From Candidatus Poriferihabitaceae bacterium (GTDB taxonomy: Bacteria > Pseudomonadota > Gammaproteobacteria > Arenicellales > Poriferihabitantaceae), in contig CBDBQH010000001.1 of assembly GCA_965208975.1 (NCBI GenBank), positions 451,280-515,279 on the forward strand: a stretch of 64,000 bases of DNA, given 5' to 3'. Under the pieces are notes generated by a model, which saw only the letters and a program-made list of their open reading frames with translations, made no database searches and was not told the origin of the DNA. Below are positions 20,566 through 20,794 of the stretch, piece by piece; positions within the stretch are counted from its first letter, which is position 1; every line of letters begins with the position of its first letter. Position numbers and translations under genes: made by a program.

Positions 20566-20597
20566 TTGACAGCTGAATGGCAAGATGCTGCTACAAT
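20566..20597 (+). promoter_or_regulatory. candidate promoter: TTGACA (20566-20571) and extended -10 TGcTACAAT (20589-20597); the 20-nt spacer is long
   Basis: hexamers read directly; the predicted TSS falls at the first CCAG units. Confidence 0.4.
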
Positions 20598-20602
20598 GAT
20601 TG

Positions 20603-20766
20603 CCAGCCAGCCAGCCAGCCAGCCAGCCAGCCAGCCAGCCAGCCAGCCAGCCAGCCAGCCAGCCAGCCAGCCAGCCAGCCAGCCAGCCAGCCAGCCAGCC
20701 AGCCAGCCAGCCAGCCAGCCAGCCAGCCAGCCAGCCAGCCAGCCAGCCAGCCAGCCAGCCAGCCAG
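20603..20766. repeat. perfect tetranucleotide microsatellite (CCAG)x41
   Basis: 164 bp with no variant unit, counted from the sequence. Confidence 0.98.
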
Positions 20767-20794
20767 GGCCTCTTTCGTTCATTAACTGATTCTT

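Follow-up and report, generated by a model that had tools for sequence, protein, structure and literature searches.

Simple sequence repeat (SSR) contingency loci have been seen mainly as a device of host-adapted vertebrate pathogens and commensals. In Haemophilus influenzae, the tracts of lic1 and hgp lie inside the open reading frame (ORF), downstream of a functional start codon, and the tract of Neisseria meningitidis nadA acts via a regulator and promoter geometry. Here we analyze a perfect (CCAG)41 tract that precedes a giant surface-protein gene in a 64-kb stretch of chromosome from an uncultured gammaproteobacterium (hereafter the window, meaning the whole 64,000 nucleotides), and we compare it with described systems. 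In nontypeable H. influenzae, the 7-nt repeat of hmw1A is transcribed within the 5' untranslated region and sets the level of HMW1A (PMC12721329), and in Moraxella catarrhalis an AGAT repeat upstream of the uspA2 ORF changes the mRNA level (PMC7302503). The CAAT tracts of lic1 and the CCAA tracts of hgp are long, perfect tetranucleotide repeats near the 5' end, with premature stops in the other frames (PMC2651432), and nadA has a tetranucleotide tract, (TAAA)n, outside the adhesin ORF (PMC2193550). Non-triplet repeats just upstream of start codons also occur in environmental bacteria, where TAACTGA heptamers in marine Beggiatoaceae, Cyanobacteria and Bacteroidetes are scattered over lineages in a way suggestive of horizontal transfer (PMC4679880).

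We propose, with about an even chance of being right, that the (CCAG)41 tract is a hypermutable SSR and supplies the initial ~165 nt of the 5' leader for an accessory gene whose giant surface-protein product has Calx-beta-like repeats, and that tract length tunes or switches expression of this gene. In this proposal, slipped-strand mispairing would add or remove 4-nt units and, because the tract follows the promoter and precedes the start codon, a change of length would alter the amount of product (through transcription, mRNA fate or translation efficiency) and not the reading frame. Within a clonal population, the surface protein would then vary, either by degrees or between on and off. The locus would be one copy of a conserved module made up of TTGACA, a 20- or 23-nt spacer, G-n-TAYAAT and, 0–4 nt further on, the perfect tract, followed by a leader with a CCTGA block and a gene encoding a signal peptide, passenger repeats, a helix and an outer-membrane barrel. 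If so, the locus would represent repeat-mediated variation of an adhesin-type gene from its 5' leader; the wider finding is a promoter-tract-leader module that occurs across phyla in marine bacteria, some of them sponge-associated. In the window, the parts around the tract are as follows.

20566–20571, + strand: TTGACA, a -35-like hexamer, read directly; its TTGAC is invariant in a 13-locus alignment.
20577–20602, + strand: three start codons, one per frame, namely ATG 20577–20579, ATG 20596–20598 (the long frame) and TTG 20600–20602.
20589–20597, + strand: TGcTACAAT, an extended -10-like element, read directly; the 13-locus alignment shows no variation in the G at -14 or in TA.AAT.
20783–20797, + strand: TAA 20783–20785, TGA 20787–20789 and the motif CTGATTCTTCCC, the counterpart of a family-wide CCTGAGTCTTCC block.
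20767–21051, + strand: the rest of the long leader, a mosaic of small palindromic elements that is stop-free in the long frame.
21052–26265, + strand: the giant surface-protein gene, with candidate starts TTG 21052, GTG 21139 and GTG 21184.

Like hmw1A and hmw2A with their (ATCTTTC)n repeats (PMC12721329, PMC8262952), this locus has a non-triplet repeat between a putative promoter and the start of a large adhesin gene; the HMW repeat is in the transcript, varies in length and sets the level of product, and the tract here would do the same. In HMW, a G-rich arm further downstream pairs with the repeats and RNase III cuts the resulting hairpin, whereas no such partner is predicted here. The tracts of the family described below start 0–4 nt past a -10-like hexamer and have GC-rich units of 4–8 nt in arrays of up to 260 nt. 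HMW proteins use two-partner secretion, in contrast to the fused C-terminal barrel encoded here, and their host is a human pathogen, whereas the present loci come from uncultured marine bacteria, some of them from sponges. The uspA2 repeat (PMC7302503) is likewise a tetranucleotide upstream of an autotransporter-type adhesin ORF, and the change in UspA2 mRNA is graded, not on/off; it differs in having 12–19 units as opposed to 41, in serving a trimeric autotransporter, in having no sequence in common with the tract and in its position relative to the promoter. By analogy with these systems, tract length would affect expression of the giant gene. While the lic1 and hgp tracts (PMC2651432) are inside the ORF after a functional start, the ATG upstream of the present tract lies in the -10-like element, has no ribosome-binding site and is unconserved. 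The nadA tract (PMC2193550) lies upstream of the promoter, whereas the present one lies downstream of the -10-like hexamer. TAACTGA heptamers (PMC4679880) are found mostly in 2–6 copies of one fixed unit at many unrelated genes, in contrast to the long, varied arrays found here at one gene family and next to a promoter-like element. We found no report in the open-access literature of repeat-mediated variation in sponge symbionts or of a promoter-tract-leader module.

The perfection of the tract, asserted in a first-pass annotation made from the sequence alone, was confirmed. Tandem Repeats Finder reported a repeat of period 4 at 20602–20766 with 41.2 copies, 100% matches and 0% indels, and a regular-expression scan placed (CCAG)41 at 20603–20766, which equals (GCCA)41.2 counted from 20602. 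As in contingency loci, the SSR is long and perfect (41 units) and lies just 5' of a surface-type gene, 285–417 nt upstream of its candidate start codons. It is the sole long tract of the window, in which the second-longest CCAG run has 3 units (23934–23945) and the regular-expression scan found no other tetranucleotide run of at least 4 units. In predicted DNA folds of 80 nt, the bottom strand, (CTGG)n, reached -19.7 kcal/mol versus -3.6 kcal/mol for the top strand. An assembly artefact appears unlikely, because tracts of the same kind occupy the same position in dozens of independent assemblies that include long-read chromosomes and short-read contigs; in the short-read contigs, the related tracts are shorter or stand at the contig end. 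We also considered a role for the tract on the minus strand and rejected it, as there is no plausible gene on that strand, merely ORFs that overlap the tract by chance.

The first-pass annotation had also read TTGACA plus an extended -10 element as a promoter that makes the tract a variable 5' leader. Both elements are present as described, but the hexamers TTGACA and TACAAT are 20 nt apart and not 17, a spacing found also in 18 related loci. A consensus promoter scan reported nothing in this region, because it allowed spacers of only 16–18 nt. TACAAT ends 4 nt from the start of the tract, and the two hexamers would drive transcription that starts in the first tract units. The order of elements, with the -10-like sequence ending at 20597, the tract at 20602–20766 and candidate starts at 21052 or beyond, puts the tract between a putative promoter and the start codon.

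This layout is kept in distant relatives. Scanning one genome per species, we recovered 80 loci, whose encoded proteins are 28–39% identical and whose record labels name Alpha- and Gammaproteobacteria, Nitrospirales, Candidatus Binatia, Gemmatimonadota, Acidobacteria/Vicinamibacteria and Spirochaetia (counted here as six phyla). The tract counts given below are based on 1.68 Mb of these related loci, with 44 tract-gene pairs. A long perfect tract lies just 5' of the gene in most of the 80 loci (for example L004:9416–9550, L009:22014–22274, L036:5012–5049 and L062:1668–1867), with arrays of up to ~260 nt and poly-C of up to 38. Forty-six of the 53 long perfect tracts stand at the 5' end of open frames that are 2.7 kb or longer, and such zones account for 5.8% of the strand space; the periods of these 46 tracts are 8 nt (30 tracts), 5 nt (6), 4 nt (4), 7 nt (3) and 1 nt (3). 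Among family genes with their 5' end inside the locus, 38 of 62 have a tract, and tract-less family genes are also without the promoter-like element. In 31 of the 44 pairs, the tract has a TAYAAT-like hexamer whose end is -2 to +4 nt away, in agreement with the earlier suggestion of a putative promoter followed by a variable leader, and TTGAC[AT] lies upstream of the -10-like hexamer at a distance of 20 nt in 16 pairs and 23 nt in 9. When both strands of the 1.68 Mb were searched for TTGAC[AT]-N15-25-TA[TC]AAT, 29 of the 31 hexamer pairs found directly preceded a long perfect tract. Thirteen loci, the window among them, agree without exception in TTGAC, the G at -14, TA.AAT and GCC, and the first in-frame ATG lies at most 60 nt past the tract in 28 of the 44 pairs.

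These counts bear on another explanation, that the tract is a neutral microsatellite without function, tolerated in the non-coding leader of an accessory gene. The gene is indeed dispensable in a close relative (L090, described below). However, a neutral repeat would not account for the concentration of 46 of the 53 long tracts at one kind of position, for the retention of that position relative to the -10-like hexamer across six labelled phyla while the unit sequence turns over, or for the tract being the only long one in the window. We consider this explanation very improbable.

In the closest relative (L081, from ENA, ERZ25069711; P0010), TTGACA-N20-TGtTACAAT precedes (AGCC)20, and an ATG lies 16 nt past that tract. 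Two chromosomes labelled Candidatus Binatia (L033) and Alphaproteobacteria (L072) have a common ATCGCCGG unit and leaders that are 90.5% identical over the 200 nt past the tracts, a likeness that points to transfer of the module between phyla. Some of the isolate names (APA_bin, SB06xx_bin) belong to sets of metagenome-assembled genomes (MAGs) from the sponges Aplysina and Ircinia (PMC11706023, PMC7883664), and the remaining records may be of sponge origin as well. Exact-protein look-ups with the aldehyde dehydrogenase of the window and with paralogues P0001, P0002, P0011 and P0007 returned no record, and no other copy of the tract locus was found. A scan of Joint Genome Institute (JGI) metagenomes with the C-terminal domain found no close relatives, with 55–59% identity over ~30–40 residues.

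Evidence that tracts of this family change in length comes from copies with identical surroundings. L041 and L055, which are in the same MAG, have 200-nt flanks that are 100% identical on both sides and tracts of 38 versus 86 nt; L018 and L020 have equally identical 200-nt flanks on both sides and tracts of 119 versus 129 nt; and L027 and L072, on the same chromosome, have a 100% identical upstream flank of 200 nt and tracts of 109 versus 237 nt. Because copies with 100% identical flanks differ in tract length, these sequences indicate that family tracts mutate quickly. Tract length thus varies among homologous modules; at the orthologous position, the syntenic L090 is without the island that carries the tract.

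Length variation could also be a by-product of recombination, with the arrays acting as portable homology for swapping 5' modules and gene bodies among paralogues and genomes. Homology often breaks at the tract: identity upstream versus downstream is 100% versus 57% for L023/L041, 99% versus 73% for L007a/L007b and 54% versus 90.5% for L072/L033. The paralogues are mosaic in structure, alike in the 3' domain and different in their passengers, and nearly identical leaders are found both in chromosomes labelled Alphaproteobacteria and in those labelled Candidatus Binatia. Since homology often breaks exactly there, the arrays may serve also as recombination junctions. As the sole explanation this is decidedly improbable in our view; it leaves unexplained why the tract always abuts the -10-like hexamer and why the arrays stay perfect and long, and it can coexist with expression control.

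The start codons upstream of the tract suggest a different mechanism. As the first-pass annotation had noted, there are start codons in three frames 5' of the tract, stops ending at 20785 and 20789, and a long frame that runs to 26265, and all of these features were confirmed. The frames of ATG 20577, ATG 20596 and TTG 20600 are all open into the tract; the two short frames terminate at TAA 20783–20785 and TGA 20787–20789, and the frame of ATG 20596 is stop-free from 20344 until the stop at 26263–26265, remaining open for 5.67 kb from the ATG. Translation could then start at ATG 20596 (or, after a unit change, at ATG 20577 or TTG 20600) and read the tract as (ASQP)n into the gene. A change of one unit would disconnect the start from the long frame, and out-of-frame reads would stop at 20785 or 20789.

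The unit of 4 nt, which is not a multiple of 3, and the early stops at 20783 and 20787 in the other frames are what one expects of such a switch inside an ORF, and no unit length in the family is divisible by 3. With 41 units, ATG 20596 shares the frame of the gene. In L081 and most relatives an ATG follows the tract in the long frame, but the window has none there, and its long frame is stop-free from the tract to the signal peptide, as opposed to 5 and 2 stops in the other two frames between 20767 and 21184. Because the + strand lacks a terminator-like site from the upstream gene to the tract, the ATG could also be part of read-through transcripts. However, a switch of this kind needs a functional start with a ribosome-binding site upstream of the tract and within the transcript, and ATG 20596 does not look like such a start. 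It shares bases with the conserved -10-like hexamer (TACAATG), and a transcript made from that promoter would therefore begin downstream of it. Its counterpart in L081 is ATA, and no GGAG/GAGG-like (Shine-Dalgarno-like) sequence precedes any of the three start codons. With a start in each frame, every tract length would join some start, which argues against clean on/off control, and an N-terminal extension of ~196 residues would precede the signal-peptide-like segment. By hand tabulation, an ATG occurs at the junction of -10 element and tract in 11 related loci and is in frame in only 2, whereas 28 of 44 relatives have the in-frame ATG past the tract. We regard this frame switch as unlikely, and the earlier claim that one unit more or less would alter which start joins the long frame is poorly supported in view of the overlap with the hexamer, the missing Shine-Dalgarno sequence and the ATA in L081.

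The leader between the tract and the gene is itself conserved in part. A G-CCT-(G/A)A block lies ~55–75 nt past the tract and is invariant in 19 leaders; its counterpart in the window is CTGATTCTTCC, which includes TGA 20787. The window counterpart of the CCTGAGTCTTCC block reads T-D-S-S in the long frame and gives TGA in another frame, while L081 has GGGATTCTTCC at this position, read R-D-S-S. In L001, the TGA of the CCTGA block has become TAA, so that the stop in that frame is kept. The gene frame is open from tract to signal peptide in nearly all 44 loci, and the other frames close within ~25 codons. Substitutions in the leader between close pairs fall on codon positions 1, 2 and 3 in numbers of 88, 63 and 90; the passenger control was too divergent to align. 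A conserved upstream ORF of 12–13 codons (M-A-A-P...L-P-A-stop), out of phase with the gene frame, ends at the invariant CCTGA block, 55–75 nt past the tracts of L004, L006, L015, L019, L041, L056, L060, L063 and L072.

These features would also fit a leader that senses frame, in which ribosomes enter near the 5' end of the tract or at near-cognate codons and tract length sets the phase. One phase would run into the gene, and the others would end at the TGA/TAA block and affect downstream initiation or Rho-dependent termination. The unit lengths that are never a multiple of 3, the open gene frame beside closed alternatives in the 44 loci, the invariance of G-CCT-(G/A)A, the retained stop in L001 and the upstream ORF ending at the conserved stop in 9 of 19 loci all speak for such a mechanism. 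Rho-binding sites are C-rich, G-poor and weakly structured, and the (CCAG)n leader of the window has the same properties. On the other hand, a canonical start codon is absent in or before the tract in most loci, the substitutions are not concentrated at codon position 3, most tract units of the family are not C-rich over G, and we know of no precedent. We find this mechanism quite unlikely. The same holds for its general form, an undescribed, horizontally spread module of marine, partly sponge-associated bacteria labelled as six phyla, in which the repeat begins at the transcription start of genes for giant surface proteins with Calx-beta-like repeats, ribosomes read from the tract, and its length sets the phase, with one phase entering the gene and the others ending at the TGA block; if this doubtful model were right, it would explain the non-triplet units, the open leader frame, the conserved over-long spacer of 20 or 23 nt and the stop block.

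Predicted RNA structure was also assessed in the leaders. In the minimum-free-energy fold of 20602–21200, the tract RNA pairs weakly, and with itself, and the leader folds as a string of small hairpins. We rejected a hairpin of the HMW type, because duplexes between tract and downstream sequence are no better than shuffles in 31 loci and the tract RNA is weakly self-paired. Across 19 leaders, we found no conserved RNA structure (RNAalifold gave 3 pairs and no covariation) and no known RNA family from Rfam; the only match was to whalefall-1, sub-threshold and on a palindromic element. This copy of the palindromic element, at 21095–21148, scored 22.8 bits against a gathering score of 37.

Several observations weigh against our proposal that the tract acts as a length-variable 5' leader. 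Promoter function is not assured, as the spacers are 20 or 23 nt, never 17, and fall outside the usual sigma-70 optimum. The unit lengths of the family (8, 7, 5, 4 and 1 nt), none of which is divisible by 3, hint at a frame-dependent step, and a purely untranslated leader leaves unexplained why the long frame is open from 20344 to the signal peptide when the other frames have 8–9 stops each (20270–21190). The long frame of the window has no ATG past the tract, and the leader would reach ~450–580 nt. Finally, RNAduplex predicted no downstream pairing partner for the tract within the following 160 nt in 31 loci (mean z 0.09, none < -2), and the HMW-type mechanism is for this reason not transferable.

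The leader described above runs into a gene whose product, at ~1.7 thousand amino acids, is 83% identical to homologue P0001 over its full length. The actual start codon is probably TTG 21052, GTG 21139 or GTG 21184; TTG 21052 has a G7 run 7 nt upstream, and gene callers chose the equivalent start for homologues P0001 and P0005. A signal-peptide-like segment, GIHYFLSALLLLPLLTGFTAEATA, lies at 21184–21258 and is followed by Q; the hydrophobic segment and the sequence AEATA|Q are kept in all paralogues, consistent with a predicted signal peptide. The stretch between tract and gene contains three copies of a palindromic element termed D2 and two of an element termed D3 (D2 at 20883–20940, D3 at 21010–21066), and the D2 element at 21101–21158 lies in frame inside the predicted pre-sequence, as it does in P0001. 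Homologues carry the Pfam Calx-beta domain (PF03160) and form a family of paralogues with at least 9 members on one 2.1-Mb contig; the paralogues are mosaics in which the C-terminal third is conserved and the passengers vary. At the end of the protein, structure prediction gave the following feature.

24850–26262, + strand: the C-terminal membrane anchor, a long helix and a large beta-barrel predicted by AlphaFold2, ending in ...VEAGVRW.

The AlphaFold2 model of the last 471 residues has a mean predicted local distance difference test (pLDDT) score of 81.4 and contains a 29-residue helix (residues 15–43) followed by a barrel of ~18–19 strands. Foldseek returned generic outer-membrane barrels only, with the 12-stranded beta-domains of BrkA and NalP at a TM score of ~0.55 when target-normalised and 0.32–0.36 when query-normalised. 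Pfam gave a weak OMP_b-brl match and a borderline Ig_3 match to the window protein and no match to PF03797 or a Pfam autotransporter model even at E<=1, and there was no NCBIfam match and no PDB sequence match. Thus the designation "autotransporter" made earlier holds in part. As in type Va secretion, the protein combines a predicted signal peptide and a passenger with repeats, and an alpha-helix precedes its barrel, but it does not have the 12-stranded PF03797 beta-domain of that type, and the predicted barrel has ~18 strands. We conclude that the protein has an autotransporter layout outside the classical autotransporter family, and its C-terminal anchor may be an undescribed type of translocator.

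The tract and the gene are part of a larger insertion.

20269–27615, + strand: an accessory island of 7.35 kb defined by blastn against L090, with the promoter-like element, the tract, the giant gene and a 253-aa nuclease-like ORF.

When L090 was compared with window positions 15000–33000 by blastn, the two were 87% identical up to 20268 and from 27616, with 54 nt between these points in L090. The tract and gene belong to the accessory island because the syntenic L090 has these 54 nt in place of 20269–27615; L091 carries other genes at the same position. The 253-aa ORF (26660–27421, - strand) has weak matches to Hjc/YraN-type nucleases and contains tandem repeats of 54 nt (x2.6) and 21 nt (x3) at 27108–27321. 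A double-hairpin palindromic element with the core TCCGCAAAGCGGAT borders the island and is inserted into the leader (20302–20359, 20883–20940 and 21101–21158), and diverged inverted copies lie at 26289–26353, 26561–26612 and 27532–27583. GC skew over the giant gene (20000–26000) is negative, at -0.10 to -0.19, and both flanks are positive; this reversal is compatible with a foreign or recently inserted segment.

Outside the island, the window is ordinary chromosome with hflC, purA, an aldehyde dehydrogenase gene, hisG, pntAB, the gene for RNase R, and carB. CarB is 73–77% identical to that of MAGs named Gammaproteobacteria, Acidiferrobacterales and Arenicellales, and the aldehyde dehydrogenase is 80% identical to that of Candidatus Spongiihabitans (Arenicellales). 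These protein sequences identify the host as an uncultured gammaproteobacterium related to sponge symbionts. The palindromic elements had prompted us to consider an origin in Neisseria or Pasteurellaceae, which we rejected because there is no DNA uptake sequence (DUS) and only one chance match resembling an uptake signal sequence (USS), and also because the housekeeping proteins place the window among uncultured Gammaproteobacteria.

In such a host, the locus would extend the SSR contingency principle to a relative of sponge symbionts. Sponge symbionts are enriched in Calx-beta proteins (PMC11706023), and Calx-beta domains also make up the aggregation factor of the sponge itself (PMC5400394). 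If Calx-beta-like proteins do vary stochastically, this would matter for the ways in which symbionts evade phagocytosis by the sponge, innate recognition or phage attack, and would provide a testable handle on recognition between symbiont and host. Such tracts also have a practical consequence, in that they break short-read assemblies and mislead gene callers into N-terminal extensions that run through promoters and repeats.

Two further repeats occur elsewhere in the window. A nearly perfect, AT-rich 12-mer array, (TTTAATACAGAA)x10.2, lies at 62411–62533, 48 nt upstream of tRNA-Ala(ggc) and tRNA-Glu on the minus strand, and a C9 homopolymer lies at 1102–1110 inside the ORF at 697–2010.

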